Positions 1,464 through 60,573 of a stretch of DNA of 64,000 nt are shown here, piece after piece. The number at the start of each line of letters is the position of its first letter. The stretch's first letter is position 1. This DNA is from Microbotryum violaceum (lineage: Eukaryota). The notes under the pieces were generated by a model, which was given only the letters and a program-made list of their open reading frames with translations, made no database searches and was not told where the DNA came from. Made by a program: the position numbers and the translations under genes. The stretch lies in assembly GCA_001244265.2 (NCBI GenBank), contig LN717261.1, positions 1,565,591 through 1,629,590 on the forward strand. The letters are read 5' to 3'.

Positions 1464-4065
1464 TAAATAGTAAAAAAAAAGTGTCGATCCGCGACCATGT
1501 ACCTAAAATCGCTGTTTTTGACTGTGTTGCGGCCCTCTGGGCCGCCTATAGTGAATGTACAAGTACAGTATTGCGTCTGCCGCACCTGCCTGTGATATTG
1601 GCGTCCCGACCAGAAGTCATGTACGACCCTTTTCGCATTTTCTGCACCATAAAAGTCGAGCTACAGTCCGAGGATTTTTTTTGTTGATTTTTGACGGGGT
1701 GCCCAACTATTGAGCAGTTTGTGTGGGATTTAATATATAGCAAGCGCGTGGGTTTGCATGACACTTCTTCTAAGGAGCTCAGGCGTGGTCTCGCTGTCGT
1801 TGACGCGCGGACGCGGGCGTCACTAATAAGCTGCGCGATGCCCCGTCGATCACGTGACGTATTTCTGGCATCCCGATACCGGTTTTAGGGGCTCAACAAC
1901 AACATGAGGTTCCAGGCGCTGTGAATACTCCTGTAAATACTCCCGCGCTACTCTCTCCAATTTTCGCCTTTTCCCTCCCACTCTCATCGAATTTGCGTGA
2001 CAACCGCGCCGAGTCTTTGGCGCGAGGGTAGCGCCGTACGATAGCGTACCGCGCCTTACCATGGGAGACAAATGGACCCGCTGGGCGCCCCGCTCATCTC
2101 CTCTCCTCTTCGTCCCGCTCCGATCAACAGGATCAGCTCCCCGCGCGTAATGACAACAATCAACCGATCTTGGTATTGCGACCCGTATAAGCGTCCGCCG
2201 TACAGCTTTGTAGAACGGACAGCGTGGTCAGCGCGAGGGCCCGATGGTCGATCCGACGCTGAGCTCGCCCCACCACCACCTCTTCCTGCGCAGAGCAAGT
2301 GCACAGGCCTCGAACCGCGCTCAAACCACTCAAGCCCCACGTTCCTATCCGCGACTACCTCGGCCCCAGATGGCCGTGTGTATCCACTTCAAGACTCGAC
2401 ACTGGGAGTGCGAAAGGTCGAAGTCGACCGGACACTTCAGCACGTGCTGCTCGCAGGGTAAGGTGCAGCTACCTCCCCCTCCCAGCCCGATCCCAAGTAT
2501 CGAAATCTACTTGAAGGATAGCGGTCAGTTGCTCCGTCCAACAACATCCGTCTACAGTAGACCCGCATGCTGAACTGTGCAACCCACCTACACAGGAGCT
2601 CAAGCATTCCGCGAAAACGCCCGGTCGCACAACAACGCGCCGTCTTTCACTTCGACCAGACACGGCTGGGCACTCTAGGACTACCCGTGTTTCGCGTCTT
2701 CGGTCGCCGCTGTCATCGACTTTGCGCCCTGATCCCTGCCGTGAATCAACGCCCAGCCTTTGCCCAAACACGGCTCATCGACCCGGCCGAGGCCACTGAC
2801 ACTCTACTTGGACCCGACAGCCCAGACAGTCGCATACAAAGATCTACGTTGACCAAGCTCGAGTTCAAGTTGGTACCAACAATCGCTTTGTGAGCCTGTT
2901 TGCATTGACCAAGCTCGCGCAGGTTGGGATACGGCCAAAGAGTGGATCCTGCGCCTCTGCCTCCCGCCAGGCCGAGACTGACACACCCACATCCTTCCTA
3001 CGTCAAGCACGGAAATGGCGATACTTATTCCGACACCAACACGGGAGATCGTGGACCGCAAAAGATCGTATTCCCCAGGTGCACGGTGATCGATGTCCCG
3101 ATGGTCGACCCAAGTACCAAATCTTTAGCTCGCTCCATCCGTCTGCGATGCCTCTCCGGTAGCCACTACTATTTCCTGCAGGGGAAGACAGAAACCGAGA
3201 GCAGATTGGCAAAGGTGTCCAATCGCGCGAGGTACTTGCCGGTCTCGGTCTTGCTGACGAAGGCGAAGAGGAGGAGGAAGATTGTGACGATGAGGATGAA
3301 GACGGCGGGGGACTAAAAGAATGGTGATGGTGAACGTACGCGTCTTCGGCTCTTTCTCGTCTCGGATGCTCCATTCTGTTCAAGGCGCAAGCACAGACTG
3401 ACATTGAACTTTTGAACACCTAGGACGAAGGCCAAGTAAAGGGGTCGAGGTGGTGAGTCTCGCGTTCACAATTCTTTGCGCACTAATTGCCAAACGCGAC
3501 GAGTACTTCTCAATCCCGCATTGCACCCAGCGTCCCTTCCTGGAGTTTGTGATTTACGGATATACTCCCAAGTCGAGACCGATTGACTCAACACATCCGG
3601 TTGCATCAAAAGAACCTACGCCTCACCACGACCCAAGGCATCAACGGCTTGACCCCAAACCCAATTGGACGTTTGATGACTTTGGGCTCGACGTTCGAGA
3701 ATAGACCGTGCGACATCACGCAGCGATACCAGGATGCGATGGCGTGCGTTGTCAAACATGGAAAGCCTCCGCTGCTCATCACGATGACGTACGACCCCGA
3801 AGCACCGGAAATCAAGGCTGCACTGGGGCTGAATGACAAAGCATGCACCCGTCCGGATCTCATTGCACAAGTGTTTGAAGCCAAATCCGGCAACAAGCGA
3901 CATGCAGGCTGTTTCGGCGATGAATGTAGGATGAATGGATTTGTTTCTTTGCTGTACTTCGTAGGGTGTTTTCTTAACCTCTGCGCTGAGATCATGTAGA
4001 CTGTTCGATTATCCTGCTTTTCTTTTGAATCTGATCCTCCCGTTAATTTAACGGGTTCCCACTGG
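1464..4065 (+). mobile_element. Non-autonomous Helitron carrying the degenerate N-terminal part of RepHel
   Basis: C..HF..RHWECERSKSTGHFSTCCSQGKVQLP Zn-finger, HPSAMPLR, YQDAMACVVKHGKPPLLITMT..RPDLIAQVF. 3' hairpin and CTGG|T at 4062-4066. 5' boundary approximate. Confidence 0.8.
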
Positions 4066-7593: not shown

Positions 7594-10500
7594 TCAGTGG
7601 GAACCCGTTAAATTAACGGGAGGATCAAATTCAAAAAATAGCAAGATAATCGAGCAATCTACATGATTTCAGCTCAGAGATTAAGAGAACACAATACGAA
7701 GTACAGCAAAGAAACTGAATTCATTCATCCTACATTCATCGCCAAAACAGCCTGCATGTCGCTTGTTGCCGGATTGGCTTCAAACACTTGTGCAATGAGA
7801 TCCGGACGGTTGCATGCTTTGTCATTCGGCCCCAGTGCAGCCTTGATTTCCGGTGAGTCGGGGTCGTACATCATTGTAATGAGCAGCAGAGGCTTTCCAT
7901 GTTTGACAACGCACGCCATCGCATCCTGGTATCGCTGCGTGATGTCGCGCGGTCTATTCTTGATCATCGAACGTCCAATTTGGTTCGGGTCAAGCCGTTG
8001 ATGCCTTGGGTCGTGGTGAGGCGTAGGTTCTCTTGATGCAACCGGATGTGTTGAGTCAATCGGTCTCGACTTGGGAGTATATCCGTAAATCACAAACTCC
8101 AGGAAGGGACGCTGGGTGCAATGCGGGATTGAGAAGTACTCGTCGCGTTTGGCAATTAGTGCGCAAAGAATTGTGAACGCGAGACTCACCACCTCGACCC
8201 CTTTACTTGGCCTTCGTCCTAGGTGTTCAAAAGTTCAATGTCAGTCTGTGCTTGCGCCTTAGACAGAATGGAACATCAGAGAAAGAGCCGAAGACGCGTA
8301 CGTTCGCCATCACCATCCTCTTCGGCCGCTTCCTCGCCGTCTTCATCCTCATCGTCGCGGTCTTTGTCCTCCTCTTCGCCTCCGTCATCAAGACCGAGAC
8401 CGGCAAGTACCTCGCGCGATTAGACACCATTGTCGATCTGCTCTCAGTTTCTGGCGATTGGCGGCCTGGCTTGGTGTAACCCCGCAAAGAGGAAAGTTGG
8501 GGTGGAAGCCATCTTCCCCTGCGGGGAAGAGTAGTGAGTACCGGAGGCATCGCAGACGGATGGAGCGAGCTGATGACTTGGTACTTGGGCCGACCCTCGG
8601 GACATCGATCACCGTGCACCTGGAGAATAAGGTTTTGACGTCCACGATCTCCCGTTTCGGTGTCGGAATCGCATATGAGCATCGCCATTTCCGTGCTCGA
8701 CGTAGGAAGGTTGTGGGTGCGTCGGTCTCGGCCTGGACGGAGGCAGAGGCGCAGGATCCACTCTTTGGCCGTATCCCAACCTGCGCGAGCCTTGGGCGAT
8801 GCGAACTCCCTCACAAAGCGATTGCCGGTGCGCAGAATGGACTCGAGCTTGTCAAAGTAGATCGTTGCATGTGACTGTCTGCGCCGTCGGGTCCAAGTCG
8901 AGTGTCGGTGGCCTCGGCCGGGTCGATCAGCCATGTTTGAGTAAAGGCTGGGCGTTGATTCACGGCAGGAATCAGGGCGCCGAGTCGATGGTAGAGGCGA
9001 CCAAACACGCGAAACACGGGGGGTCCTAGCGTGCCCACTTGAGTTTGGTCCCAGTGGGCAGCGAGCGAAGTAAACGGCACCGCGTTGTTGTACGATCGGG
9101 CGTTCTCGCGGAACGCTTTTGCTTCTGTGTGCGTGGGAAGATTGTCGTGGAATTGTCGTCGCACAGTTCAACATGTGGGTCTACTGCAGACGAATGTTGT
9201 TGGACGGAGCAACTGACCGCTATCCGAGCCTTCAAGAAGCTGCCGATACTCGAGATTGGGCTGGGGAGGGGAAGGCAACTGCACCTTGCCCTGCGAGCAG
9301 ATCCTCGAGTCGCGACAAAGAGCCTATGACCTCATCAGCACGTGCTGAAGTGTCCGGTCGACTTCGACCTTTCGCACTCCAAGTGCCAAGCCTTGCAGTG
9401 GGTGCACACGGCCACCTGCGGGGCGAGGTCATCGCGGATCGAAACGTGGGGCTTGAGGGGTTTGAGCGCGATTTGAGGCCTGTGCACTTGCTTTGCGCAG
9501 GAAGAGGTGGCGGTGGGGCGAGCTCAGCGTCGGATCAGCCATCGGGCCCTCGCGCTGACCACGCTGTCCGTTCTACAAAGCTGTACGGCGGACGCTTATA
9601 CGGGTCGCAATACCAAGATCGGTTGGTTGTTGTCATTACGCGCGGGGAGCTGACCTTGTTTTGATCGGAGCCGGACCAAGAGGAGAGGAGAGGAGCGTGG
9701 CGCCCAGCGGGCCCATGGTCTCCCCATGTTCCCGCGGTACGCTATAGGACGCCCGAAAGCCCGGCCTGAGGCGCGTAGCGCCCGACTGGACAAATTTGGG
9801 GCCTCAGATGGGCCAAAATTGCCAAGGCGCGTAGTCGGGGGTGGACAAATCATGGTGCGCCGGTGTGGGTGGGGTCCTAGGCCCGTAGGTTTCAGTGGAC
9901 AAATCGGGACCCATTTCGGCCACGTTCGGCTTGGAAAGCCAAAGTTTGCCGACCCTCAAGAGCAGCGTGAGCGCGCGCGAAACATTCCGGGCTGTACCGA
10001 ATTCACAACAACGGCCTCCTCTAATTGATGGATATTTTGCACTTCCAACGTTTATTCTTACAAATCTACAATTAATTTAATCGACTTGCTTTTAACCTTC
10101 GGTTTCATGAATTATAACCTCTTGGCTAGTTGAACGAAGCGTTTGAAAATTTGAACGTTTGAGTGCGCGCGTCTCTTGCCTTCCCCGCCATGTTGCGTCG
10201 ACGTCGTCTGTGCCATCATCGCCAATATCATACATTCTCGGCACGGCTTGCTTTGACGAAACGTAGAGGTCCGGATATCGATCTCTTTGACAATGATTTT
10301 GAGCGAATGGCACCCCTCTTGGACGTGAGGGTGTCTAAGCTTTTCGCCTCCAGCTTTGACAAACCAGCCAATGCACCCGGATTCAGCTTAAACAGCTTTC
10401 ATGGTCGACAGACGAGCCTCTCGAGTTTGAATCCCTTGCTAGGCCGCTCGATGCTTTGAGGGACAAGTTGAAGATCGTGGAGCAATCCTTGCGGCACGTA

Positions 10501-11703
10501 GGCAAGGCCACCCGTCTATCATTATCGGCTGCCTTTCGACGTCGAATCTGGCGGCATATGCCTCACGCTGAGCGCATGCGTTCGGTTGTTCTCAGTCGCT
10601 AAGAGTTGGTGAAGTTATCCGCGTGTCGGCATCGAAGATCAACGTCCCTTCGTTAGAGCTCTGGAAGTGATGCCGTCACTGCTCGTTGAGGAGCAATTAC
10701 CCCCCTCAATGAACCTGGGGGTTTGTAGATCTCACTGTAGCTAGCTTACTGCTTCGCAGAGTGACTGAAATCGATCTTACCTCTCGCGGTTCGTCACATG
10801 TATACTATGGCCACGTTAAATCATAGGCAAAGAGGCAGGCAGTAAGTGCAGGTGGGGAGCCCTCGGCGAAGCAGAAGTGAAACGGTTGACGCGCGCGCGG
10901 GCTCCGCCGATTCGGCCCGAGCGAAAAACGTCCGGACGGCGTTTTCGCGATTTTTGAAGATGTTTTAGAGCATTTGAAGCAATTCTAGAGCTATTTTTTG
11001 AGGCGCGTAGATGGACTGGACATTTTGGGGACATTTTGGGACCAAAATTCCAAAAAATGGTGGACAAATGAGGTCCAAAATCGGCGATTTTCCCGGATTT
11101 TACCTACGCGCCTCAGGCTGGGCTTTCATGGGTCCTTACGCTATCGTACGGCGCTACCCTCGCGCCAAAGACTCGGCGCTGTTGTCACGAAAATTCGATG
11201 AGAGGGGGAGGGAAAAGGTGAAAATTAGAGAGAGCAGCGCGGGAGTTTTTACAGCGCCTGGAACCTCATGTTGTTGTTGAGCCCCTAAAACCGGTGTCGG
11301 AATGCAAAGAATACGTCACGTGATCGACGGGGCATCCCGTAGCGTAGCCGCGCCTGCGCCCGCGCATCAACGCGTCAACGACGGCGAGACCACCCCGGAG
11401 CTCTGTAGAAGAAGTGTCATGCAAACCCACCCGCTTGCTATACATTAAGTCCCACACAAACTGCTTAATAGTTGGGCACCCCGCCAAAAATCAACAAAAG
11501 TTTTCCTCGGGCTGTAGCTCGACTTTTATGGTGCAGAAAATGCGAAAAGGGTCGTACATGACTTCTGGTCGGGACGCCAATACCACAGGCAGATGCGGCA
11601 GACCCAATACTGTACTGGAACATTCACTATAGGCGGCCAACGCAGTCAAAAATAGCGATTTTAGGTACATGGTCGCGGATCGACCTTTTTATATATCCTT
11701 AAA
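7594..11703 (-). mobile_element. Non-autonomous Helitron (same family as 1464-4065), interrupted by a TIR element at 9746-11136
   Basis: Reverse-complement match to 1480-4065. FRENARSYNNA.FTSL and LLFPAGEDGFHPN motifs. 3' hairpin and CTGA|T at 7597-7593. Confidence 0.85.
9746..11136 (+). mobile_element. Non-autonomous TIR DNA transposon of the P-like AGGAC family, 1391 bp
   Basis: Imperfect ~33-bp TIRs (AGGACGCCCGAAAGCCCGGCCTGAGGCGCGTAG and rc AGGACCCATGAAAGCCCAGCCTGAGGCGCGTAG). Perfect 8-bp TSD TACGCTAT at 9738-9745 and 11137-11144. The empty site is visible in the paralogous Helitron at ~2035-2050. Confidence 0.92.
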
Positions 11704-24359: not shown

Positions 24360-28439
<4,080 letters not shown>

Positions 28440-28984: not shown

Positions 28985-29489
28985 CCTCCCCAACCAGCCC
29001 ACATCCCAACAATCGATCTACCTCCTGTGTGATGTGCCTCTCGGAAGCACCCGAGTGCCTGGTTCACCTTGCGGTCGGCTGCCCATTTGCCCGGCGCCTC
29101 TGGTCTGCTCTGTCTTCGACCCCCCACCCAGTCTTTGTGGACTTTGTATGCCCGGTCGTGTCTCGCTCGGAACGTCGACTTGTCGAACTACGAGTCCTCT
29201 TCTTTCACTCGATCTGGAAGCTCTGTCGCCGTCGTCGATTCTCGTCGGATCTTTTGGAACCGATCACCGAAACGGAGTTCGAGGGGCTTCAAGCCTCTAT
29301 CCAGGAGTCCAAGGGTCGCCTAGTGTCTCTGTAAGACACCAAAGGGGGTTTTAGTGGGTATGGTTGATCCTGGTTCAGGGTCAATGAGTCCTACACTAGT
29401 GGCTTCTGCCAGTGTGCGTAACAGCATTCCCTCCGACTTTTCCGAAGATTTCTAGGTATTAATATAATTATGCTGTTAATGAAGTCTAT

Positions 29490-29524
<35 letters not shown>
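28985..29524 (+). mobile_element. Heavily 5'-truncated LINE copy with a long poly(A) tail
   Basis: Near-identical to 6431-6936; pure A run at 29491-29524. Confidence 0.92.
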
Positions 29525-29528: not shown

Positions 29529-29709
29529 GACGCGGAGGCCAAAGCGCGCGCTACCCCAAGTCCCCGCTCGACCCAATTTTGGCCTACCCTGAGCAGCCTT
29601 CGGCATGACTTTGGGCCCGTTCGCCTTCGCCTCGAGACGCGCTTCGCGTTGCTCGCGCTTGAACAAGTAGTCAATAGCCACTTCTATCGATTTCTGTAAT
29701 TACTTGAGT

Positions 29710-30707
29710 TCGACTCCTTCGTAGAGCGCGCGAGCGGAGCTGAGTTAGCCGGTGAAGCCAGTCAAGTTGCAGTTTGGGCTGAACCCGGCATCCCGTAACA
29801 AACATCATGGGGTGATGTGCTACCAGGATGAGCCAGAGATGTAACCAAGAAGATAAAAGAAAACAAAAAAGAAAAGAATATAGAAAGGGAAACCAACAAG
29901 GAAGGTTTTTTTAGTTTTTTAGATTTTGGGTGGGCGGGAGGAGCTCAGAAAATGTAACGGCTTTGCTTGGAAAGCGCGGTTCCTATCAGTATCTAGGATT
30001 ACTGCAAATGACTGGGAAGACTTGGCATACCTTTGCTTGGAAGCGCGTCGCGTACGAACAGAGATGATCGACCCGGAACGCTGGCACGTTGGGTGATGAG
30101 GATTGTCTGCGTAGCGAGGTAGCCAAGTAAGTCGCCCAACAAGGACAACTGTGAGTAGGAGTACCCTGGGGCAGAGCCCGGGAGAGGAAGGGCGATGTAC
30201 CTTAGCTCTAGGAGCGAGACGCGGTACTCAATGGCAAGAGGTACAGCTACGCTTGGCAGGCGTAGGGCGTGGGCTGCATACAAGGGTATGAGCAGTTAGT
30301 CAACCATCCAACAAGGAGAGTTGAGGAAGCAGCGTACATAGAGGGCAGTTGTCCCAGCAGTCTGGTAGAGACTGATGCGGGTGCGTCTGTGATCGCTGGG
30401 GAAGGTCCTGTGTGAGACTCGGAACCTGTCAGCCTGAGGCATAGTGGCAGGAAGAGTTCAAGGACGGACACCAACCTTGGCAGGAGGGTGGCAGAGGTAC
30501 ACAGCGATGAACTGGTACAGCAGCGGCAAGCAGTGCCGAACTGACAAGGCTGAAGGAGCAGGCTTGGGTAGAAATTCCTGCGCGGGGGGCGGCTTATGGA
30601 CCAAGGCTCAAAGGGCAGGCGTGAAGGCACGGCTTATAGCGGAGAGAGGGAATGCGTGCGGGCACGGCTTACAGCAGGGGGAGGAATGCGTGCGAGCACG
30701 GCTTACA
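29710..30707 (-). repeat. ~1 kb dispersed repeat (LTR or long 5' leader of Copia-like elements) with tandem GCGTGCGRGCACGGCTTAC units
   Basis: Colinear similarity to 34550-35530, 50288-50460 and 51660-52100. Confidence 0.65.
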
Positions 30708-30709
30708 CC

Positions 30710-30865
30710 CACGGGAAAAATGTCAAAATCTGCAAAGGCGCCTCGGTGGCAAAACGTGTGTTTCTTCCCAAAATGTCAATTTTTTGCAATGCGCGATTTT
30801 CAGGATTTTGGGTCCTCAAAATGTCAAAAAAAAAAAGAGCCTCCGGCTGGGCTTTCGGGGGTCCT
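30710..30865. mobile_element. Terminal remnant of an AGGAC-family TIR element just upstream of the FGGY gene
   Basis: gcctccggctgggctttcgggggtcct is the reverse complement of the family TIR. Left boundary approximate. Confidence 0.7.
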
Positions 30866-34549: not shown

Positions 34550-35597
34550 GTCGACTCTTTCGTAGAAGCGCGGCTAGGTAGCGGGATTTGAGTCGAGTTG
34601 CAGTATCAGGCATGAAACCCGGCATCCCGGGAATGGGTTGAAAGAAAGTCCCCACAAGACGAGAGACCCAGAGATCAGAAGAGAGATAATAAAAAGGAAA
34701 GAAAAGATACCAGCAAGGACTTTTTTTTTTTTTTTTTTAGAAGGGTGGGCGGGAGGAGCTCAAAAACAGGACACTTTGCTTGGAAAGCGTGGATCCTATT
34801 AGTACTCATAAATACTGCAAAGACTGGGAGGCTTGGCATACCTTTGCTTGGACAGCGTGACACACTTGAAAGGAGGGAACCGACCCTGAACGCTGGCACG
34901 TTGGGTGGCAAGTGTAGTCTGTAGCGGAAGGTAGCCAAGTAAGCCAACATGCCCAACAAGGACAGTTGTGAGCAGGAGTACCAAAAGGTAGAGCCTGATG
35001 CGGGGAGTGATGTACCTTAGCTCCGGGAGCGTGACTCGGTACTCAGGAAAATAAGGTGCGGCTACACTGGCAGGTGTAGGGCAGAAACGGCTGCATACAG
35101 GGTATGAACAGTCAGTCAACAATCCAACAAGGAAGGTTGAGAAGAAGAGGCGTACGCAGTGGGCAGCTGTCCGTCGTAGTCTGGCAGGGCAGAAGACTGG
35201 GAGGCAGTTGCGTGTTTGTATCGCTGGGGAGGTCCTGTGAGATGCTCGGAACCTGTCAGCCAGAAGGCGTGAGGGCAGGAAGAGATCTAGGACGGCAACC
35301 AACCTTGGCAGGAGGTGGCAAAGGTACGCAGCGAATACTGGTACGGCAACAGCAGGCAGTGCGGAACTGACCCAGTGCGGCGGGAGCGTGCTTGGGGAGA
35401 TTCCTGCGCGGGTGCGGCTTACGGGCCAAGGCTTATGCTCGAGGCAGGCGTGCGAGCACGGCTTACTGCGGGAGGCCTGCGTGCGGGCACGGCTTACAGC
35501 GAGAGGCCTGCGTGCGGGCACGGCTTACGGCTGCGGGTGTTGAAGTCGCGCGCGCTAAAGTCCTCAGCGTCAAACTCTTGCAGCAAAAGCCGAAAAG
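34550..35597 (-). repeat. ~1 kb dispersed repeat (Copia-associated LTR/leader family)
   Basis: Similar to 29710-30707. 34550-34720 is nearly identical to the region upstream of Copia gag (50288-50455). Confidence 0.65.
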
Positions 35598-35636: not shown

Positions 35637-35929
35637 TAAGCTCGACGCCCCTCCCTTTGGGAAGGGCTTGTGAGTTATCGGCGCGTTTGGCCCAGTTGCC
35701 CTCCGAAATTTTGGCCCTGAAAAGTGCCCCATTGCTGTAGCATGGCATATATTGGTGCTATCTGAAAACTGGAGGAATAAGTATTTACTTCATCATTAGT
35801 GATGATGCTTCACCGAAGCTTGAAGTCTAGGAACGCTTGATCATCTCGCTACAGCAGCTTGAATCAACTGATTCCGAACGAGACGCCGGTCGGCGCACGG
35901 ACCAGTCGTAGTCCAGTCCGCGTCGAAGG
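35637..35929. mobile_element. Detached terminal part (TIR) of the AcademH-like element at 53638-55770
   Basis: 35637-35711 matches 53638-53714. Ends in GTCGAAGG, the reverse complement of CCTTCGAC at 55763-55770. Confidence 0.7.
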
Positions 35930-38900
35930 AGGACCCATGAAAGCCCAGCCTGAGGCGCATAGGTAAAATCCGGGAAAATCGCCGTTTTTGGACCTCATTT
36001 GTCCACTATTTTTTGGGATTTTCGGCCAAAAAGGTCCCCAAAATGTCCAGTCCATCTACGCGCCTCGAAAAATAGCTCTAGAATTGCTTCAAATGCTCTG
36101 CAACATCTTCAAAAATCACGAAAACGGCGTCCGGACGTTTTTCGCTCGGGCCGAATCGGCGGAGCCCGCGCGCGTGTCAGCCGGTTTGGTTCTGCTTCGA
36201 CGAGGGCTCCTCATCTGCACTTGCTGCCTTCCTTTTTGACCCTACATCTTTCACGCCCTTCATTTGATTACTCAAGGACACAGAAGCGTTCCGTAATCCG
36301 TTGTAGCGTCGAAGAAAACAGAACCTGGCCTCAGCCTGCTGGCTTAAGTCGAAGACACGCTCCCCGAGGTATGCAACTGAATCCTGGGGTGCGAGAGTGA
36401 GGGCGGGCGTTGAGGATGATTCCAAGGATTGAATAATTTGTCGAGCATCAAGTCCGAAGAAGCGAGTCGTGCCGTCAATCATATGCGTTGAATAACGGCC
36501 CTTGCTCACAACTCGTAATTCTTGGAGGACGACATTCGAGAGTAATGCGAGGGAGTCGGTCTCCGCTCTGTCACAATGATTTGACGTGGCCTTGGCATAC
36601 ATGTAACGTACTACGAGAAGCAAAATCGACGTCAGTCAGTCTGCAAAGCATTAAGCTAGCTACAGTGAGATGCACAAACCAAGTCCAATGGACAATTGTT
36701 CTTCTCCTATGTTGCTGGCGTCACAACTGACAGGTATGATGCCTCGTTTCAATCCGAAGCAGACAAGAGAGCCGATTTTCAAAGGCATGGCTGACGTGAC
36801 GTTTCCGTCAATCGACCCAAACGTTGGGATCTTGGCGGATACCGTGTATTGCCTTGCTCGCAATTGCATCCGTACCTGGGCAAGAATGAACATTATTGAT
36901 GAGCACTCTCTGGGCGATATGTGCACAGCACACGATTGTAGCTCACTTCTTTACGTCCCTCTTCGATGTATCCTATGTTGTCTGTCTCGTTTGCGGTCGA
37001 AAAGCGACTGAAGGTCCCTTGTCCTGTCCAATGAATGGACCTCGCAACTCCTGACACAGCTTCGAGACGGGCTGCACCCATTGATTGCACTAAGCCTCGG
37101 AGGACACTGGAGTGCACTTCACCATGCTCGGACAATTGCGCTTTTGATGTGGGATCGAAATCTTGGGCAGTCGAGGTGGGGGCGCCGTGCCTTCCCTTGA
37201 GTAGGACAGCCTTGAGGTGGGCATATTGATGGGCCCGACGGTGCTCAATCAAGCTTTTCAGATCAAGCACTACCTGACAAGTGACGTGACGCAGAAGAGA
37301 TGGGAGCCGAAGAATTTGAGCCTGTGAAAGAGTGCTGGTTCTGTTTAGTCGTTCTGCAAGAAGACAGTCGCTGCTTAAATGAACCTACACGACCTGGCAA
37401 GCTTTCATTTGCTGTCTCAATGGCGCCGAGTAGAAAGCGTTCCTCTGCTTGAGCATTGGCCTCATCATAGGCCTGCTGAACGGCAAGCCTAGAATTGAAA
37501 GAGACGTATCATCAGTTCGGATGAGGCTGGTACAGGTCTCAAGCACTCAACTTACAGTGCAGCATCATTGTCAAGGCCAAGAGCAGCTAAAGAGCGAACA
37601 GCATTTTCAACTGACTTTCGCTCTTTCGGGTCCAGCACGACGAGACCTTGGCACGTTTTAGTTCGGATCCCATTGAGGGTCCGATCTAGGTCAGCGAGGT
37701 ACGAAACCGGATTAGTGTCCTCGGGCTCGAAATGCCAAGGTTCACTACCTGTAAGGGGCGGCATCAAATAGCTTTGCTCAAAACGAAGCCACAAGCTTGC
37801 GACACCCACCATTGACCGGTATCTCTTCCTCTACCTGGTTGGACTTCTGATAATGTATGGTATCCCACATTTGAAGACCAAGAAGGAGCTCTTCTGCAAG
37901 TCCTGCAGCAACCAAGCTTGTGGATCGAATCTCTTCATCATTTGGATAAGTCCGCATTGCGACAAGGTCGAGATCGTCGAGCCTGTCATACGTGGTAGCC
38001 TTGCCGCAAGCCTGCGGTCTCTGTTTTGAGCTTTCGCATCAATCCTAGGAGCGCAGTAACTTTGCTTGCCGACTAAAGGCCCAGAAATATAAGCTTTACA
38101 AGCAGTAGCTCATGTGAAACCCCGAAAGAAAAGATGACTTACCTGCAGGAATCCTAAAGCATCAAATTCTTGCACGACTTTGCGCAAACCGCCAAAAAAG
38201 TGCTCGACCATCTCCGTACCATGTCGCCAAGGTATGAACGCTTCTTCCGGCCAAAAGTCGCGGTAGTTCCGAATAAGGGCGATGTTTGTATCGACGACCT
38301 TTCGCATACCATCTAGGGTCTCCTTGGCTACAAAGGACTGCGCGTTGTACCCGGGACGATTGCGCATGAAGGTCAACCAGCCCGCAAATGTATAACGAAC
38401 CGTTAATAGCATCTTGATACGTTCAATCGGCTGCAATGACCTATTTTGTATCGCGTCATGAAGCTCGCCGCAGAGAAAGAGGAAGACGATGGCATTGGCA
38501 TCGACTTTGCCGTCCTCGTGAAGTCGGCAAGCAAGCGAGAGAGTAGCTTCGGAGAACTCTCAATGCGTCGCATTGTCATCTTGACGATCACGTCCAATCA
38601 CATCGCGTAGATACAAGGTCTTTGCCGACTCTTCGACGTCGAGCAGCGTCAACAGGTCACGATATCCGATGCATCCGGTGCCGCCGTATATTGCCCTGGC
38701 GCCTGAATCGCACGCGCTGCGGAGATTTTTGCTCAAGTGCTTTTCGTCCGGATCGAAGCACGTTGGAGTGTTGCCCACTTGAACGGATGCCAGTCGAATG
38801 GCTGGGAAGACTTTGTTGGGACCTGGAGATGGAATGACATGTGCAAGCTCTCGCCGACGGTTCCCCTCTCCGGTATACCCCTCATCGCCGCCAAGTCGCT

Positions 38901-39838
38901 CTGCCATGACGCGCTGCAAGAGGCCTTCGCTTGCCGCCCCATCCGCCGAGATGGAGGCAAGAAGATGACCTAGCCCAGCGTCGACAAGGAATTGAACAAC
39001 TGATTCAAATTCATCCGCAGCCTCGGATGAGCTTGTCAAGTCGCCAATCACGAATGCGGCAAGGTATTGAGCTGGGCAAGAGACATCGTTTGGTGCAAGC
39101 ATGTACACTCGAACCTATTCACAGAAGCGCCAGCAAATGAGCAACCAATCAAAGCACCATGCAGACATAGTCATTGACCTTGGTGCCAGCGATCGGAGGG
39201 TTCGGTCCCCGAAAGATACCCTCGAGCTCCCGCATGGTTTCATACACGATTGGCGGGCCAACCATGCCAATGAGCTTGTGACGAAAGATTTTCTGGCCGC
39301 GCAGGCGATCTTCCGCCTCCTTGTCCTTCGAATAACTCCGTGTTGTCCTGATTACTTGTCGCAGTTCCGTGTCGTCGACATGCACGTTGGAGGTCTTTCC
39401 ATCCGAAAGGATCTTTTGGACAACGCGCTGCATGTGGGGCTCATCTAAGCCGAACCTAGCTTTTCAAATGTGGCTCGGTGTTGTCTGAGAGGTTTGTAAT
39501 TGTCAGTAGCTTGAAGGAGTAACGGATAGCAGGTCTGAAATTGACTGAAGTGTGCGCATTGAGATTCCTCCAATTGTTTTTTGCACCACACGCAAGGCCG
39601 TGGGAGATGCCAGAGCCAGCGCGTGTTCAAAGTCGAGCAAAGCTTCGTCTTGCACATAGCCTCTCATGTCCTTGCCTTGTGCGTTTTGCCTATGCGTGAT
39701 CACGGCAACTTTTGCCATACCTTTCAGAATATTTGCTCCAGCAAGCTCGCCGACAATTAAACCTTGGGCGTAACAAAGATAGATCTTGCCATCCTTGGTC
39801 CCCAAGAGTATTAGAACCTAAAGCCGAGGCACGAGATA
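35930..39838 (-). mobile_element. P-element-like TIR transposon (AGGAC family) with an intron-containing DDE transposase; 5' part lost or displaced by Copia
   Basis: TIR AGGACCCATGAAAGCCCAGCCTGAGGCGC at 35930. Subterminal region matches the rc of 10880-11136. Motifs VDDT, SADG, DEKHLSKNLR, DRQDDNA, GTEMVEHFFGGLR. Confidence 0.75.
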
Positions 39839-42800
39839 TGTTTAGTACGAGAGCCAAGGATGATAGTAAAGACAGTTGGAGAAAGAAGGAAAGCGCAGAT
39901 GTAAGGCTCGGTTGCCTTACGCTATTTAACTACCCTTCTGATTTCAATATGCATCTATTGAAATTGTCAGTCTTTTGGACTGTGTAACCTAGTCGTGAAG
40001 GGCCTGGGGTATTACAACAGAGTAGGAGCGTGCAAGGCAAGCAATAGCCGCGCGAGGCGACTAATATCAACAACTAGTAACTAATCATGATCGGTAATAG
40101 AAGTGGGATGAAACAGCAATATACACTCTGACACCCCCCCGTGCTGTCATACCACTGCACCTCGTAAGCCCAAGTTTGTCCAATGGAAGATGAAGGGCTT
40201 GGGACCCAAGGCCTTGGTGAAGATGTTGGCAAACATGTTGCCAGTGGTGATGTAGCGGACCTCAATCTCTTTGTCAGCAACCCTCTCGCGGACGTAGTGT
40301 TCCGAGATGTGAACGTGACAAGATCCCTGATGGTTGGTTGGGTGTTGTGCCATAGCAAGCAAACATTCGTTGTCACCATAGAGCACGACTGGACCGGAAA
40401 CCGGAGCGCCGAGTTCGCTCAGGTGAATGGCGTCCCCGCTAGCATACGAAAGAGAGAGGTATTCCGCATCGGTAGTAGACTTGGTGACCCTGTGCTCCCG
40501 TTTGGAACACCAAGCAATGGCGGCTCCGGACAAGATGAATGCGTAGCCCATGGTCAATCGCGAGGTTGTCAGGCAGGCTCCCCAGTTTGCATCCAAGTAG
40601 CCATGGAGCGGTTGGTTGGTCTTGCGGTAGGTGAGCCCCAAGTCCAGCGTGCCTTTGATGTAGCGGAGGACTTGCTTGATGGCTGTCCAATCCTCCGGGC
40701 CGGATTGCTGCGAGAAGTGCGCGAGGTAGCTGACCACAAAAGCGAGGTCCGGACAAGTGCCAACTGCCGCGCACATTAACGAACCAATGGCCTGCAAGTA
40801 GCAAGTGCGATCCTCAGGGGTAGCAGACGAGTTCTCGAAATCGAGGACGACACCGGGTTGCATGGGGACGCTTGCCAGCTTGGCATCGGCGAATTGGAAC
40901 CTGGCCAAGATATCTCGAAGGTAGCGCTCTTGGGAAAGTGTGATGGACCCGTTGTGCCCGCGTTTGACTTGGATGCCAAGGATGTATTTGGCAGGCCCGA
41001 GACATTTGATACCATATGCGAGTTCCAACGCGTCAAGAACCTTATCAATCTCGGCGGTAGAGGGCCCAACCAACAGCAAGTTGTCAACGTACAAGGCAAT
41101 GTAATGAGAGTGCCCGTCGTGTTTGCGGCAGTAGATGCAGATGTCTGATTGGGTGGGCACGTATCCGAGGGAGCGCAAAGTCGAGTCAATCTCTGCGTTC
41201 CAGATGGTGCCCGCTTGGCGAAGTCCGTAGATGGATTTGGACAGCCTGAGGATCTTGCCAGGCATGTTGATGCCTTGTGGAACGCGCATGTAGAGAGGCT
41301 TGTCAAGTTTGCCATGGAGGTACGCCTTGTTGACGTCGGCTTGATGGACATGGTAGCCGTTGGCCGCGGCGAGGGCGATGAGAGCCCGAATGGACGTGAA
41401 CTTGACGACTGGGGCATAGTTCTGCTCGAAGTCAATGCCAGGGCGTTGGGCACAACCATGGGCAACGAGACGAGCCTTGCAATCGGTGATGTCCCCATGC
41501 TGGTTGCGTTTAGTTTGGAACACCCAGCCCGACTGTAAGAGGATCTCACCCGCGGGGAGCTCACAGGATTCAATGACTTCGAACATCTCATATTCATTGA
41601 GAAGTGATTCGAATTTGTTGTGTGCCGGGCCACCCCACGTGTCCTGTTGTCCCGATTGGATGACATTGCCCCAATTGGCTGGATCTCGGACAACAGATAA
41701 GTTGTGCTCCGCAAAGCCGGCTTTGGTGGACGCGAAGGCACGGAGCATGCCCTGGAAGGCGGGAGTGGGTCCATCAGGTCCGCCAACAAGGTCTTCCCAC
41801 ATGATGAGGGTGGGAACAAGTGGGCGGCGAGTCCGGGGGCCAGCAATGATGTTCCGAGCGTTGATTTCACCGTACTTCCCTGGATTGGGACCAACCTTGG
41901 CAACATTGCCGTACTCCCAAGTGGGCTTGACTTTGGCAAGTGGAGTTGGCTCCGGTGGTGCTGGTTCCGGAGGATGCTGCCGCAGGTGGATTGAAGAAGT
42001 GGCATCGTCGTCAAGCGAAGGCGGCTGGGTGGGTTCGACAAGCACGGGAGGTAACAGCGTTGCCGGAGCGTCGGCAGGTGGAGGACGGGGATAGAAACCC
42101 GGAACAGAAGGCGGTGTGATGCGGGCGGGAACGGTAACAAAGGGGAACTCGGTTTTGAGGAACATCACATTCCGGCTCAAACTCACGCGCATTGAGGAGG
42201 GATTGAGAAGGCGCCAGGCTTTCGCGTGTCGATCGTAACCCACAAAGACCAGCGGAATCCCTTTTGGGTCGAGTTTGTCCCGATGATGAGCCGGCACGGT
42301 GGCCCAGGCGCGACAACCAAACGCTCGAAGCGCTCCCACGGTCAGGGGGGCGCCTGACCAGCGACAATTTGGTACACCTCCCTTGAGAGCTGCATGAGGC
42401 GAAAGGTTCTTGGTGTGGATGTAATACATGGCAGCCTTGTCCCAGCACGTACGTGGGAGTCCTGAGTCAATCAGTAAAGCCAGGGTGCCCTCCACAATAG
42501 ATTGGTTGAGCCGCTCGGCTCAACCGTTTTGCTTGGGCGTGTACAGTATGGTCAATTCGCGACGGATCCCACGAGTCACGCAAAAACCATTGAAGGCGGT
42601 AGAGACGTGTTCACCGCCGTTGTCTGAGCGGAGCGTGTTGACCCTGCGACCTGTCTCGTTTTCGATCTCCATAAGCCAGTCCTTAAACGTCTGAAGGACC
42701 TCGCTCTTGTGCCCAATGGGGTAGACCCAAGTTTTCCTCGAGAAGTTGTCGACGAATGTGACGAGGTACCGTTTGTGGCTGAACGACTCCTCTGGAAAGG

Positions 42801-43030
42801 ACAAGACATCCGAGTGGACCAGTGCTAGCGGCTCCGAGGCGTGGAATGACAAAGGGGGGAACGGCAAACGATGGGCTTTGGATGCGAGGCGCGCATTGCA
42901 GGTGAAGTCTACACACTCGAGGTCACTATAGGTCCAATCCAAACCCTCCACCTGGCCAGAGGCCGCCAGTTTTTTAAGTGTCTGGACAGAGGCATGACCG
43001 TAGCGACAGTGAAGGGTAAGTAAAGGGATC
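39839..43030 (-). mobile_element. Ty1/Copia element A, 5'-truncated (GAG-pre-IN, IN, RT, RNase H, probable 3' LTR 39839-40133)
   Basis: [41 protein letters not shown](N), A(N)IFTKAL. G7 polypurine tract followed by TGTCAG at 40133. Confidence 0.9.
39900..40016. mobile_element. 117-bp TGTAA..TTACA mini element (solo-LTR/TRIM-like) inside the Copia A LTR
   Basis: 5-bp terminal inverted repeat; flanks GCAGA/ACAGA (4/5 match); second copy at 49366-49480. Confidence 0.8.
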
Positions 43031-43077
43031 CCATGGGACTTGGTGATCTCTTGGACGACAACCCCTTACCTCCTCAG

Positions 43078-43993
43078 TGCTTACGGCAAGATCAACCACA
43101 TCGCCAACAACGCTGGCTTCACATTTGACGAGATGCTCCACACCATGACCAACGACGCTTTTGAGCTGATCCTCAAGGTGCACCTCTCAGCCCCCTTCCG
43201 CATTGTCCGAGAGGCCGCCCCGTACCTGCGCGCCAAGGACCCCAAGGTCATTGCGACCAACCGAGCCATCGTCAACATCTCGTCGATCGCCGGTCTCCAC
43301 GGAAACGTCGGCCAGACCAACTACGCTACGGCCAAGTCCGGTATTCTTGGCTTCACCAAGACCGTTGCCAAGGAGTGGGGTATGTGATTCCTCTAGCCTC
43401 CTCGAAGAGCTCACTCGTCTGCTGACATCGCCCATGTTGACATCGCCCATGTTGCATAACCCACCCACAGGTGCGTTTAACGTCCGCTGCAACGCCGTTG
43501 CCTTTGGCTACATTCTCTCGCGATTGACCCGTGAGTCTAAAGACTCAATCTCAAGACAGGACATGGAGTGCTGAACATGGCTTGTTTTGCCGCTTCTCTG
43601 CTGCAGAGGCCAAGGAACTCGGCGAGACGATTGAAGTCGCCGGACAGAATATTTCCCTTGGTATTCCGACTGGCGGCAAGAAGCAAGAAGGGCCGGTTCC
43701 AGGGTGCATCTGAGTGAAGTCGATCTCCTAAAGAGAATTTGGCCCCTGACGACCTCCCTCCCAACTCCTTTTGCAGGATTCCTCTTGGTCGACCCGGAAC
43801 GGCCCAAGAGGCAGCGAACGGTGTCCTTTTTCTCATCTCCCCCTTGGCTTCGTACGCCATGGGTCACACACTTGAGGTGAGTGTCTTGAGTCGCCGACCA
43901 CTCTTGTTCCAATTTGTTCCACCTGTACGCGGAACTAATGATGTGGCTGTTTGATGGCTTGTGTTCCAGGTCACCGCCGGTAATGGTATCTAG
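43078..43993 (+). pseudogene. Short-chain dehydrogenase/reductase (FabG-like), 5'-truncated
   Basis: NNAG, IVNISS, YATAK (YxxxK), VRCNAVAFG, IPLGRPG, LEV|TAG. Introns retained. No N-terminal TGxxxGxG exon; it abuts Copia A. Confidence 0.85.
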
Positions 43994-55170: not shown

Positions 55171-55189
55171 GTCGGTTCAGCAAGCCCAG

Positions 55190-55659: not shown

Positions 55660-56088
55660 GGCTCATGATGAGGGGAGGTGATGAGGGGAGGTGCGATGTT
55701 GAGTGGAGGAGAGAGAGGATGCGTGAGCCGCGGCCGGGCTTGAGTGACCTGGATCTATGCAGCCTTCGACAGGACCCCGAAAGCCCGGCCTGAGGCGCGT
55801 AGTGCCCGACTGGACAAAATGTGGGCCTCAGATGGGCCAAAATCGCGAAGGCGCGTAGTCGGAGGTGGACAAATCAGGGTGCGCCGTGTGGGTGGGGTCC
55901 TAGGCCCATAGGTGCCAGTGGACAAATCTGGGCCCATTTCAGCCACGTTCGGCTTGGTACGCCAGAGTTTGCCGACCCTCAAGAACGTGCGGAGCGCGCG
56001 CGAAACACTCTGGCCTGTACCGAATTCACAACAAGGGCTCTAATGGCTCAATTTTGCAATTATAAGCCTCTTGGCTGGTTGAACGAGG

Positions 56089-56411: not shown

Positions 56412-59080
56412 CCAGTGGGAACCCGTTAAATTAGCGGAGGATGAAATTCAAAAAATAGCAGGATAATCGAACAGTCTACATGATATCAGCGCAGAGGTTA
56501 AGAAAACACAATACGAAATACAGCAAAGAAACAAAATCCATTCATCTTACATTCATTGCCGAAACAGCCTGCATGTCGCTTGTTGCTGGACTTGGCTTCA
56601 AACACTCGTGCAATGAGATCCGGACGGTTGCATGCTTTATCGGCCCCAGTGCAGCCTTGATTTCCGGTGAGTCGGGGTCGTACGTCATCGTGATGAGCAG
56701 CGGAGGCTTTCCATGTTTGACAACGCACGCCATCGCATCCTGGTATCGCTGCGTGATGTCGCGATTTGGTTCGGGGTCAAGCCGTTGATGCCTTGGGTCG
56801 TGGTGAGGCGTAGGTTCTCTTGATGTAACCGGATGCGTTGAGTCAATCGGTCTTGACTTGGGAGTACATCCGTAATTCACGAACTCCAGGAAGGGACGTT
56901 GGGTGCAATGCGTGATTGAGAAGTACTCGTCGCGTTTGGCAAGTAGTGCGCAAAGAATGGTGAACGCGAGACTCGCCACCTCGACCCCTTTACTTGACCT
57001 TCGTCCTAGGTGTTCAAAAGTTCAATGTCAGTCTGTGCTTGCGCCTTCGGCAGAATGGAACATCAGAGAAAGAGCCGAAGACGCGTACGTTCGCCATCAC
57101 CATCCTCTTCGTCCCCTTCCTCGCCGTCTTCATCCTCATTGTCGCGGTCTTCGTCCTCCTGTTCGTCTTCGTCATCTGGACCAAGGCTGTCAAGTAGCTC
57201 GCGCAATTGGACACCATTGTCGATCTGCTCTCGGTTTCTGGCGATGGGCGGCCCAGCTTGGTTGAAACCGCAAAGAGGAATGTTGGGGTGGAAGCCATCT
57301 TCCCCTGCAGGAAAAAGTAGTGTGTAACGGAGAGGCATCGCGGACGGATGGAGCGAGCTAACGATTTGGTACTTGGGCCGACCATCGGGACATCGATCAC
57401 TGTGCACCTGGAGAATACGGTCTTAAGGTCCACGATCTCCCATGTTGGTGTCGGAATCGCAGATAAGCATCGCCACTTCCGTGCTTGACGTAGGAAGGTT
57501 GTGGGTAGGTCGGTCCCGGCTTGGCGGGAGGCAGAGGCGCAGGATCCACTCTTTGGCCGTATCCCAACCTGCGCGAGCTTTGGCCGATGCGAACTCCCTC
57601 ACAAAGTGATTGCCGGTGCGCAGAATGGACTCGAGCTTGGTCAAAGTAGATCGTTGCATGTGACTGTCTGCGCCGTCGGGTCCAAGTCGAGTGTCGGTGG
57701 CCTCGGCCGGGTCGATCAGCCATGTTTGAGCAAAGGTTGGGCGTTGAGTCACGGCAGGGATCAGGGCGCCGAGTCGATGGTAGAGGCGACCAAACACGCG
57801 AAACACGGGGGGTCCTAGCGTGCCCACTTGAGTTTGGTCCCAGAGGGCAGCGAGCGAAGTGAACGACAATGCGTTGTTGTACGACCGGGCATTCTCGCGG
57901 AATGCTTTAGCTTCTGTGTGGGTGGGTAGAACAGTTCAGCATGTGGGTCTACTGCAGACGAACGTTGTTGGACGGAGCAACTGACCGCTATCCGAGCCTT
58001 GAAGAAGCTGCCGATACTCGAGATTGGGCTGGGGAGGGGGAGGTAGCCGCACCTTGCCCTGCGAGCAGCACGCGCTGAAGTGTCTGGTCGACTTCGACCT
58101 TTCGCACTCCCAGTGCCGAGCCTTGCAGTGGGTGCACACGGCCGTCTGGGGGCCGAGGTCGTCGCGGATCGAAACGTGGGCTTGAGGGGTCTGAGCGCGA
58201 TTCGAGCCCGGCGCACTCGCCTTTGCGGAGGTGGTTGGTGGGGCGAGCCCAGCGTCGAGTTGGCCATCGCGCTGACCACGCTGTCCGTTCTGCACAGCTG
58301 CACGGCGGGGTCGTATACGTGTCGCAATGCCAAGATCGGTTGAATTGTTGTCATGACGCGCCGGGGGGCTGATTCTGTTGATCGGAGCGGGACGAAGAGG
58401 AGGGTCGAGCCGCGGGGCGCTCAGGCAGGCCCATGGTAGCCCATGGTACGGCGCTACCCTCGCGCCCAAGACTTGGCGAGGTTGCGATGGCCCTCCCTGA
58501 GTCCCTGGCGACCTTGGGACCGGGACATAGCAGCGAGGGTTTGTTCTTGAATGAGTATCACTAAAATTGGATGAGAGTGAGAGGGAGAAAGGAAAGGTTC
58601 GAGGGAGTGGCGCAGGATTATCTACGTGGTTTGATTTGTTGTTCAGCCCCTAATGCCGCTGGTCGACTGCCGGAATGACACTCCACCGCCGGCGCACCGC
58701 ATCACGTGACAAACGCCAGCCCTCGCCTCGCACGTCAGGCAGAGCTCTGCTGTAGAAGCAATATCATGCAAAGCCACGCACTTGCGGTTCATTAAATGCA
58801 ATATGAGTGGAAGCATTGTTTTATGTCAGCAAAAAAAAGAAGGAAAATACTGGGAGCGTTGTAGCTTCGTTGGAACGGCGCGGAAAATACAAAAGTCACC
58901 ACAGGGCTTGTACATGACTTCTGATCGGAACCCCAACACCACAGGCAGGTGCGGTAGACACAACAGTATGCTGGTACATCCACCACAGGCGGCCCTCCAG
59001 GCCGCAACCCAGTTAAAAACAGTGATTTTAGGTTCATTCCTTAACTCACCTTTTTATTTATTTATAGAGGTAGTAAGAAA
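56412..59080 (-). mobile_element. Non-autonomous Helitron (family of 1464-4065)
   Basis: Colinear with 7594-9720. 3' CTGG|T at 56415-56411. 5' portion diverged; boundary approximate. Confidence 0.85.
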
Positions 59081-60573
59081 GACTATCCAAAGGTACTGTG
59101 ACAAATCTATTCAAACGAGAGGAGAGCAAATTGTCTCAGTTGTGGGCAAGGCCCGTGGGAGGGGCGCACCCCTCACACGAGGCGTCTTGTCCGAGTGCGC
59201 CGTCTCTTGCCTCCCCCGCCGCGTCGCGTCGTCTATGCCATCATCGTCATTATCCTACGTTCTCGCTTCAGCCAGCTTCGACGAAAGTATCTAGATGCTC
59301 CGGATATCGAGCTCCTTGACGATGATTTCGAGCGAATGGCACCCTTCTTGGACGTGAGGGTGTCTTGAGCTTCTCGCCTTCCGCTTCGACAACCCACTGC
59401 AGACACCCAGATAACCCAGATACAGCTTTCGTGGTCGACAGACGAGCCTCTCGAGTGTGATACTCTTCCTAGGCCGCTCGATGCTTGGAGGGACAAGTTC
59501 AAGGATCGTGGAGCAATTACTGCGGCGCGTAAGCAAGGTTACCGCGCGTGTCAGGAGTTGCGAGGCGAGGTCCATTCGTTGGACAGGACAAGGCACCTTC
59601 AGTCGCTTTTCGACCGCAAACGAGACGAAAAACATAGGATACATCGAAGACGGACGTAAAGAAGTGAGCTGCAATTGTGTGCTCTGCACATATGGCCCAG
59701 AGAGTGCTCATCAATAATGTTCATTCTTGCCCAGGTACGGATGCAATTGCGAGCAAAGCAATACACGGCAATCGCCAAGATCCCACCGTTTGGGTCGATC
59801 GACGGAAACGCCACGTCAGCTGCGCCTTTGAAAATCGGCTCTCTTGTCTGCTTTGTATTGAAACGAGGCCTAATACCTGTCAGTTGTGACGCCAGCAACA
59901 TAGGAGAAGAACAACTGTCGATTGGATTTGGTTTGAATATCTCACGGTAGCTAGCTTACTGCTTCGCAGAGTGACTGCAATCGATCTACCTCTTGTGGTA
60001 CGTTACATGTATACCATGGCCATGTTAAATCATAGGCAAAGAGGCAGGCAGTAAGTGCAGGTGAGGAGCCCTCGGCGAAGCAGAACCGAAACGGCTAGCG
60101 CGCGCGCGGGCTCCGGCGATTCTGTCCGGGCGAAAAACGTCCGGACGGCGTTTTCGCGATTTTTGGAGATGTTTTAGAGCATTTGAAGCAATTCTAGAGC
60201 TATTCTTTGAGGCGCGTAGATGGACTGGACATTTTGGGGACATTTTTGGGCGAAAATTCCAAAAAATGGTGGACAACGGGCTTCAGCTTCTCTTGCAGCG
60301 ATGATCGCCACCACGGCTACCCATTTGGACAACGGCAAACGCCACAGTTCCGCGCCTCCTTCTTTCCACACTCTGCACACCTCGTTTGTCTAGTACGAAC
60401 CACATAGCTCATCATCAACCCGCACAGGCTCGATCTAGCGCGCCACTAGCAGCTGCAGGGCGTATCGGCTAGGCTATCAGCACGCTTGCACTCTGCCAAG
60501 ACCTTTACGCTTTGTCGACAGCTTCGTAACATCGGTACGCCGTGTCGGGTCCGCATTTGTATGGTCATTCGCC

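Follow-up and report, generated by a model that had tools for sequence, protein, structure and literature searches.

The 64,000-nucleotide stretch of Microbotryum violaceum contig LN717261.1 analysed here (the window) carries at 35930-39809 the remains of a DNA transposon with AGG..CCT termini. This element is best read as a cut-and-paste transposon whose transposase would cut only 2 nt deep and which falls in the fungal part of the P superfamily, most likely in the lineage of the Repbase rust P and 'P-Fungi' elements, rather than being a canonical THAP-bearing P element; we put the probability of this reading at roughly 0.7. The classification by itself is modest news. Of more interest to specialists would be the conserved AGG terminus, the fusion of the transposase to a protease domain and, above all, the 2-nt scars attributed to an enzyme with the P fold.

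The scars are found at vacated sites, where two copies of the target-site duplication (TSD) are separated by AG or CT, and sometimes by AGT or ACT. The first two bases of the element are AG and its last two are CT. Exact 8-mer duplications at period 10 number 20 within 45 nt of 152 distinct element ends, while the same flanks hold 1, 1, 4, 0, 2 and 2 duplications at periods 8, 9, 11, 12, 13 and 14, respectively; farther from the ends, 5 period-10 duplications occur in 30,500 nt. By eye, an AG or CT spacer fits 15 of the 20. In 60-nt flanks of the same 152 ends, AG is seen 10 times and CT 13 times, each other dinucleotide 0-4 times, AGT or ACT 4 times and AGG or CCT not at all, and a shuffled control for AG/CT scars gave a mean of 0.06 and a maximum of 1.

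Empty, filled and scarred alleles are all present at two sites. At an insertion hot spot within a CAGTG-ended repeat, a manual count of the 79 genomic matches gave 32 empty alleles, 28 with AG, 17 with CT, one with ACT and one other, and the filled alleles have the same 8-mer as their TSD. For the target of the window's own element, the flanks are joined with an 8-bp overlap in 19 of 29 other copies of the host repeat, and in one host copy, where the coordinates predicted a 2-nt gap, the spacer is CT. Locus L094 contains three copies of one 8-mer, spaced by AG and CT and followed by an element; sites of this type indicate repeated use of the same target. No description of footprints of fungal P elements was found in the literature, of which Repbase Reports and some supplements may hold one.

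The scars suggest that the transposase cuts the ends 2 nt deep and leaves 2-nt 3' overhangs. In the mechanism proposed, the enzyme would pair the AGG ends and cut the transferred strand exactly at the border but its partner strand 2 nt within the element; insertion would proceed with an 8-bp stagger. Each side of the donor break would be left with a 3' AG overhang, and the two could not pair with each other; if they overlap fully, end joining would produce TSD-AG-TSD or TSD-CT-TSD, and joining with a one-base overlap would produce the AGT or ACT spacer. Scars would accumulate beside present copies because good targets are reused. This logic is that of the Tc1/mariner elements, where short non-complementary 3' overhangs give footprints made of the TSD, two or three terminal bases of either end, and the TSD again. 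The architecture of Tc1/mariner elements is unrelated, however, and their target is TA; the likeness apparently lies in how the element works and not in membership.

The implied stagger of 2 nt differs from that of Drosophila P, which cuts 17 nt inside (PMC7776569, PMC10983969). One might ask whether the same element cuts like Drosophila P, leaving long 3' overhangs that host end joining then trims to 2-nt remnants. End trimming is common at DNA breaks. In addition, the predicted fold (see below) is very near that of P transposase, including the insertion domain, and P has an established 17-nt stagger (PMC7776569). Trimming predicts remnants of varied length, some of them combining bases from the left and right ends, however, and what is seen is a sharp 2-nt class from either end. 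The two spacers, AG and CT, share no microhomology, the 3-nt classes fit a one-base overlap of two AG overhangs, and beside the 152 ends there is neither AGG nor CCT, nor any remnant of 5 nt or more. In the fetched genome loci, searched with one TIR (terminal inverted repeat) variant as template, no TIR remnant of at least 5 nt lies between duplicated 8-mers; these loci include three AGG-type and three four-nucleotide spacers. Genome-wide, a gapped TIR-remnant pattern gave 1 match, itself without a TSD, against 7 in the control, and a looser remnant pattern did not discriminate (814 matches versus 773). Trimming of long overhangs is accordingly regarded as improbable, and a 2-nt cut is preferred.

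The AGG..CCT border could be fixed because the TSD is exact there. Facing ends were paired in 71 loci, comprising the top BLAST matches and the first 100 of 281 pattern matches rather than all copies; 33 of the 47 facing pairs have an exact 8-bp TSD at this border (36 with at most one mismatch), and none has an exact TSD of 4-7 or 9-12 bp. Borders at GG or CAGG were rejected, since an exact duplication is obtained solely at 8 bp when the border is set at AGG, and since no one base precedes it (among 144 ends, C 63, G 46, A 18, T 17). The TSDs are 68% G+C, with no strict consensus. The 8-bp TSD that the first-pass annotation had reported in the window is therefore a property of other copies as well, and its linkage of the transposase to these termini holds, in that transposase-bearing copies have the AGG ends and the 8-bp TSD. 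Three copies of a second family (family B, described below), L112, L121 and L132, have exchanged flanks and no TSD, which suggests recombination or conversion between copies.

The end finder required A[GA]G, and an inverted-repeat search of metagenomic loci served as a control blind to AGG. Among the 34 longer of 80 such loci, two of which are the same element, it recovered 17 inverted-repeat pairs beginning AGG, 8 of them with an exact 8-bp TSD. Positions A1, G2, G3, C5 and C7 are invariant across 21 aligned ends. Three of the metagenomic elements have low G+C and are nearest to Rhizophagus proteins, and for the rest the nearest proteins are Agaricomycete or unnamed. Distant Basidiomycota-like and Glomeromycota-like relatives thus have AGG(A/C)C ends in common. 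The literature found contains no description of AGG termini in fungal P elements, though Repbase Reports or the supplements of PMC3164196 may hold one.

The assignment to the P superfamily comes from the transposase. Neither the catalytic exon nor the other window exons match a Pfam transposase family, and the catalytic exon has no match in Pfam at all or among PDB sequences. The P0002 model (mean pLDDT, the predicted local distance difference test, 73.7) nevertheless aligns with Drosophila P transposase (6p5a) at Z 27.3, with a root-mean-square deviation (rmsd) of 3.4 over 375 residues, whereas the next structures are HzTransib at Z 11.8 and then Tn5, RAG1 and Hermes, the last at Z 9.1 or below (rmsd 7-8.5). 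Foldseek gives E 5.6e-14 for P transposase against 2.8e-4 for RAG1, and the ESM Atlas neighbours of the transposase are P/THAP9 clusters with template-modelling (TM) scores of 0.71-0.79. The predicted order of the protein is a helix-turn-helix (HTH) region followed by a split RNase H domain with a P-type helical insertion, and this insertion domain is present and highly conserved. In alignment A2 the catalytic residues are nearly invariant: D138 in 109 of the 110 rows that have a residue there, D261 in 126 of 127, D326 in 125 of 128, H329 in 128 of 128 and E507 in 115 of 120. The P-like DDE transposase claimed in the first-pass annotation is upheld by the closest fold and by conservation of the DDE and D(2)H motifs, and none of the non-P transposases in the structural comparison provides a better match, P scoring far highest. 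Taken with the 8-bp TSD and short TIRs, the modelled fold and the D(2)H motif place the transposase, with the qualification due to a model, in the P superfamily in a broad sense; the superfamily is delimited by the D(2)H motif and a TSD range of 7-9 bp (PMC3698922).

It is very unlikely that the element is instead a divergent hAT, Merlin, Kolobok or KDZ/Zisupton transposon, or that the AG/CT duplications were left by another transposon or by slippage. TSDs of 8 bp are also found in hAT, Merlin and Zisupton elements, Zisupton carries a Ulp1 domain, and the hot spot lies within a repeat with hAT-like CAGTG ends. Against this, the scanned proteins have no Pfam match to hAT, and Hermes reaches Z 9.1 at most compared with 27.3 for P; general scans likewise gave no Pfam match to KDZ/Zisupton, Kolobok or Merlin, with no dedicated Kolobok or KDZ alignment or structure compared. 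The spacers are the element's own terminal bases, the duplicated 8-mer is the family's TSD at two sites, and the 20 events at period 10 contrast with 0-4 at periods 8, 9 and 11-14.

Relatives of the transposase are numerous. A 10-sequence profile matches 3472 representative clusters at E<=0.001 and 748 at 1e-30; of ten matches looked up, nine are Agaricomycete hypothetical proteins and one is unnamed. Further homologues occur in Glomeromycota and in the rusts Melampsora larici-populina and Puccinia striiformis, the rust proteins having profile E values of 1e-138 to 1e-87 and a pairwise match of 24% identity (E 3e-33). Of 28 long homologues, 3 score above the gathering threshold of PF12017, and matches to PF12017 and PF21787 are weak but recurrent.

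These homologues make doubtful the earlier suggestion that the lineage is possibly unclassified, as the two rusts are the source species of Repbase P entries. The entries P-1_MLP, P-2_MLP, P-1_PSt, P-N1_MLP and P-N2_MLP are rust P elements with an 8-bp TSD (PMC3164196), and a 'P-Fungi' annotation class has been applied to Phakopsora and Pleurotus (PMC12387193, PMC6136362). Like the Microbotryum element, the Repbase rust P and 'P-Fungi' elements combine a P-type transposase, an 8-bp TSD and autonomous plus non-autonomous copies, and their hosts are likewise Pucciniomycotina and an Agaricomycete; the five rust proteins examined differ in having no Ulp1 domain. For the Repbase and 'P-Fungi' elements, the text found gives no termini, domain structure or footprints. 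The available portions of PMC10502011, PMC12210899 and PMC12730594 hold no description of the present family.

Whether the family should instead be set apart as a separate P-related superfamily meriting its own name, outside the P and P-Fungi classes of Repbase and RepeatMasker, depends on how its peculiarities are weighed. It has its own terminal signature, no detected THAP domain, no sequence-level match to P, different scars and thousands of unnamed homologues, and fungal P elements are listed as rare, with Pfam P domains recovering merely 11 copies (PMC5751038). However, homologues exist in the very species behind the Repbase fungal P entries with their 8-bp TSD (PMC3164196), 'P-Fungi' is annotated in Pleurotus, an Agaricomycete, the weak PF12017 and PF21787 matches recur, and the structural distance to P is far below that to any other listed transposase. 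A separate superfamily is thus unlikely, and membership in the fungal P branch most likely.

The element is nonetheless not a canonical THAP-bearing P element, as neither a THAP domain nor CA ends were found when both were looked for. Canonical P ends begin with CA, and the ends here are AGG..CCT. Drosophila P and THAP9 (6p5a, 6pe2) share with the element the HTH, the split RNase H with helical insertion, the DDE and D(2)H motifs and the 8-bp TSD, and the TIR is of similar length (31 bp in Drosophila P, ~33 bp here). The element differs from them in its AGG ends, the lack of a detected THAP domain, an N-terminal Ulp1-like protease and a protein more than twice as long. The THAP (C2CH) domain had no match when partly overlapping sets of 10, 28, 57 and 19 proteins were scanned with Pfam. 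For the zinc-finger region, ESM Atlas scores are all below 0.8 and the N-terminal model has no listed match, which excludes no fold.

Full copies are predicted to encode one spliced protein of ~1700-1800 residues, consisting of a Ulp1/C48-like domain, Cys/His zinc-finger motifs, the HTH region and the DDE core; the N-terminus holds the Ulp1 domain and a CxxC..H..C motif. PF02902 (Ulp1) matches upstream of the transposase at E 6e-6 in family B and 0.0035 in family A, the family of the window copy, and at E<=0.01 in 19 of 28 long homologues. The protease family profile matches SENP1 and Ulp1 at E 1e-17, one modelled Microbotryum protein has fold matches to both Ulp1 and P transposase, and the protease H, Q and C are at least 90% conserved in alignment A5. 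A hidden Markov model (HMM) built from these proteins detects the domain between the TIRs in 13 of 16 full metagenomic elements; it does not detect it in the three Glomeromycota-like ones, in 12 Glomeromycota proteins or in five rust proteins. The 78 of 78 matches of this HMM in long proteins are to some degree circular. The Microbotryum and Agaricomycete-type transposases thus carry an N-terminal Ulp1/C48 protease domain. As a speculation, the protease might strip SUMO or a similar ubiquitin-like tag either from the transposase itself or from chromatin proteins where the element lies.

Ulp1 domains are known in DNA transposons of the MULE, CACTA, Zisupton and Ginger groups. The present element resembles these in having a C48 domain inside a DNA transposon, and differs in having that domain joined to a P-type transposase. 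Accessory domains of transposable elements include the C48 protease (PMC5751038), and no Ulp1-P transposase fusion is described in the literature found, a search that had most subscription papers and Repbase Reports outside it. Between the protease and zinc-finger regions, copy L091 contains (positions ~1750-1850) a variable, in-frame, acidic tandem repeat of DDDCTT units, whose copy number varies among elements.

Several observations weigh against the favoured reading. The stagger is deduced from repair products alone, and host trimming could shorten longer overhangs. The hot-spot scar counts are not independent, because the host repeat has multiplied the alleles, and represent at least three events (AG, CT and ACT). 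Scars are known from this genome alone, and there are none in the 45-nt flanks of 59 candidate ends from metagenomic loci. The TSD is not exact in 14 of the 47 facing pairs, some of which have exchanged flanks while others are unaccounted for. P transposase was not among the matches of any PDB sequence search, whether run with one protein or with a profile, the structural match to it has 13-14% identity, and the placement in the fungal P branch relies on species overlap and the TSD rather than on sequence. In the protease, the second triad position is apparently Asn instead of Asp in families A and B, and the domain is not essential to the lineage, because it is absent from the five rust and 12 Glomeromycota proteins.

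The window contains the four TIR-bearing pieces listed in the first-pass annotation (9746-11136, ~30865, 35930 and 55771), and the TIR match indeed runs for ~33 nt (Table 1). The window copy proper is a dead, 5'-truncated transposon copy; it is not autonomous because it lacks 2.6 kb at its 5' end, where full copies have the Ulp1 and zinc-finger exons, and because a premature TGA (38560-38562) interrupts the main catalytic exon. Its similarity to full copies stops short of the right-hand limit of 39838 given earlier. All of the transposase motifs named at first sight (VDDT, SADG, DEKHLSKNLR, DRQDD and TEMVEHFFGGLR) lie within minus-strand exons; the main catalytic exon includes the second Asp in SADG (38941-38943), DxxH-xxK-xxR, the helical insertion with DRQDD, and the catalytic Glu (38203-38205). 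Among named proteins, the closest belong to Microbotryum silenes-dioicae and M. lychnidis-dioicae, at 94% over the catalytic exon. Non-autonomous derivatives are present as claimed, for example the complete copy at 9746, and the visible empty site of that insertion was also recovered, the host-repeat copy at ~2035-2050 being an empty site because it has TACGCTAT just once. The view of the pieces as one family held for the TIR, which the 30865 end shares, and failed for that end's interior; its inclusion in family A is ruled out by ~67-69% identity in the catalytic exon, and it belongs to family B.

Table 1. Parts of the P-like elements and their target sites in the window
Feature	Position	Strand	Basis or remark
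TSD copy CCTTCGAC (minus strand) at the element's right end	35922..35929	-	8-mer recurs at 55763-55770; present once in empty host copies
Right (3') TIR, ~33 bp, begins AGG	35930..35962	+	sequence match
3' 3.9 kb of family-A autonomous-type element	35930..39809	-	equals positions 2580-6464 of the 6466-bp copy L097, 96% identity
Transposase exons, HTH region and first catalytic Asp (VDDT, codon 39374-39376), one short intron	39164..39808	-	tblastn of P0001; open reading frames
Main catalytic exon	38143..39114	-	alignment and fold comparison
C-terminal transposase exons, boundaries approximate	36180..38072	-	tblastn of P0001; GT..AG joints at predicted introns in one public run, type unrecorded
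Complete 1391-bp non-autonomous family-A copy	9746..11136	+	TSD TACGCTAT at 9738-9745 and 11137-11144
Empty site of the 9746 insertion, in another host-repeat copy	2035..2050	-	single TACGCTAT
Partner CCTTCGAC target-site copy, inverted relative to 35922-35929	55763..55770	+	same 8-mer; empty host copies
Family-A left end: TIR and element positions 1-317	55771..56086	+	similarity to full copies
Continuation of the 55771 copy past a 3.1-kb insertion (positions 321-675, 5339-5820, 6158-6397)	59189..60276	+	similarity to full copies
Family-B element left end: same TIR, other interior	30707..30865	-	similarity search
Further family-B fragments	29568-29683, 28535-28732, 28460-28522		similarity search
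Excision-scar allele CCCATGGT-AG-CCCATGGT, hot spot within CAGTG-ended repeat	58430..58447	+	genomic alleles

One target 8-mer, in opposite orientations, adjoins both the right end at 35930 and the left end at 55771, and empty host copies reveal that the two flanks were formerly contiguous. For these two reasons the 35930 and 55771 ends are taken as those of one insertion, and the possibility that the 55771 end is an unrelated piece was discarded on the common target site. The copy that begins at 55771 has an internal deletion and lacks its last ~67 bp. The two ends are now separated, probably because up to ~20 kb of DNA was inverted. Both alternative transposition and ectopic recombination of copies in opposite orientation, as described for BuT5 (PMC3698922), fit as the origin of the inversion, and with the remaining two ends lost neither is favoured. 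The inverted stretch, 35930-55770, encloses a region resembling a long-terminal-repeat (LTR) retrotransposon and other repeats.

In the 33-Mb genome a degenerate 26-nt TIR pattern has 281 matches, against 0 for the reversed control, and at least 100 of them lie on the two largest contigs among those examined, which make up 7.5 of 33.2 Mb. Full copies are 5.9-7.1 kb long, mostly ~6.5 kb. Copies of family A are 91-97% identical to one another and those of family B 96-98%; additional families have the same TIR, and a further one has AGGACCCGGGAAAGCTC ends (L002, L057, L141). Copies L024, L027, L050, L057, L117 and L146 are inserted in or directly beside the TIR of a copy of the same superfamily. 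Three public runs contain a joint that spans the whole L097 element with 8 shared letters; together with the intron joints in Table 1, such joints lend weak support to splicing and to empty sites. No RNA source of the element was listed.

Other repeats crowd the window. A very abundant repeat with CAGTGGGAAC ends, which we take to be hAT-like, occurs at 7595-9745 plus 11137-12008, at 1416-4066 (minus strand) and at 56413-58484, with 233 first-look candidates; it contains an insertion hot spot for at least three families of the P-like element, and 8 of 144 ends share one flank of the hot spot and 5 of 144 the other. A Copia-like retroelement (39902-49480) has an open reading frame (ORF) resembling integrase and reverse transcriptase at 40147-42519 (minus strand), and its region includes direct repeats of 115 bp (39902-40016, 49366-49480). 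At 12148-17996, LTR-like direct repeats of 375 bp lie 5.5 kb apart with strong negative GC skew inside, and a third copy of this repeat is inverted at 28037-28410. A host gene at 31001-33429, whose ORFs by eye resemble an FGGY-family carbohydrate kinase, is flanked by copies of an 850-bp repeat (29889-30706 and 34706-35528). Finally, a 524-bp repeat at 6431-6954 and 28985-29508 (98% identical), inserted also in family-B copy L107, encodes a Cys/His-rich ORF fragment.

For Microbotryum, the probable inversion visible in the window suggests that the family rearranges the genome. For the superfamily, there is a somewhat better than even case that the fungal P-like elements form a large, old sister branch of animal P, with the P fold, a 2-nt cut, an AGG(A/C)CCC terminus across Basidiomycota and Glomeromycota, non-THAP zinc fingers and, in Microbotryum and Agaricomycetes, a de-SUMOylase of their own. 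Drosophila P is unusual among cut-and-paste transposases for its 17-nt cut and its guanosine triphosphate (GTP) cofactor; its GTP contacts are D528, K385, K400, V401, S409, F443, D444 and N447, and the way in which its strands are cleaved is described as unknown (PMC7776569). Direct comparison with Drosophila P is possible through a natural homologue that has the same fold and leaves 2-nt scars. If the sister-branch view is true, the P fold as such would not entail the 17-nt cut and the looped end DNA, held to be hallmarks of P, and such comparison would make the role of GTP directly testable. P-type elements are probably common but under-annotated in the genomes of basidiomycetes and arbuscular-mycorrhizal fungi, because 3472 clusters stand against 11 listed copies. 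Many 'ubiquitin-like protease' annotations in these genomes are probably transposases, and the conserved AGG terminus provides a simple handle for annotating the elements.

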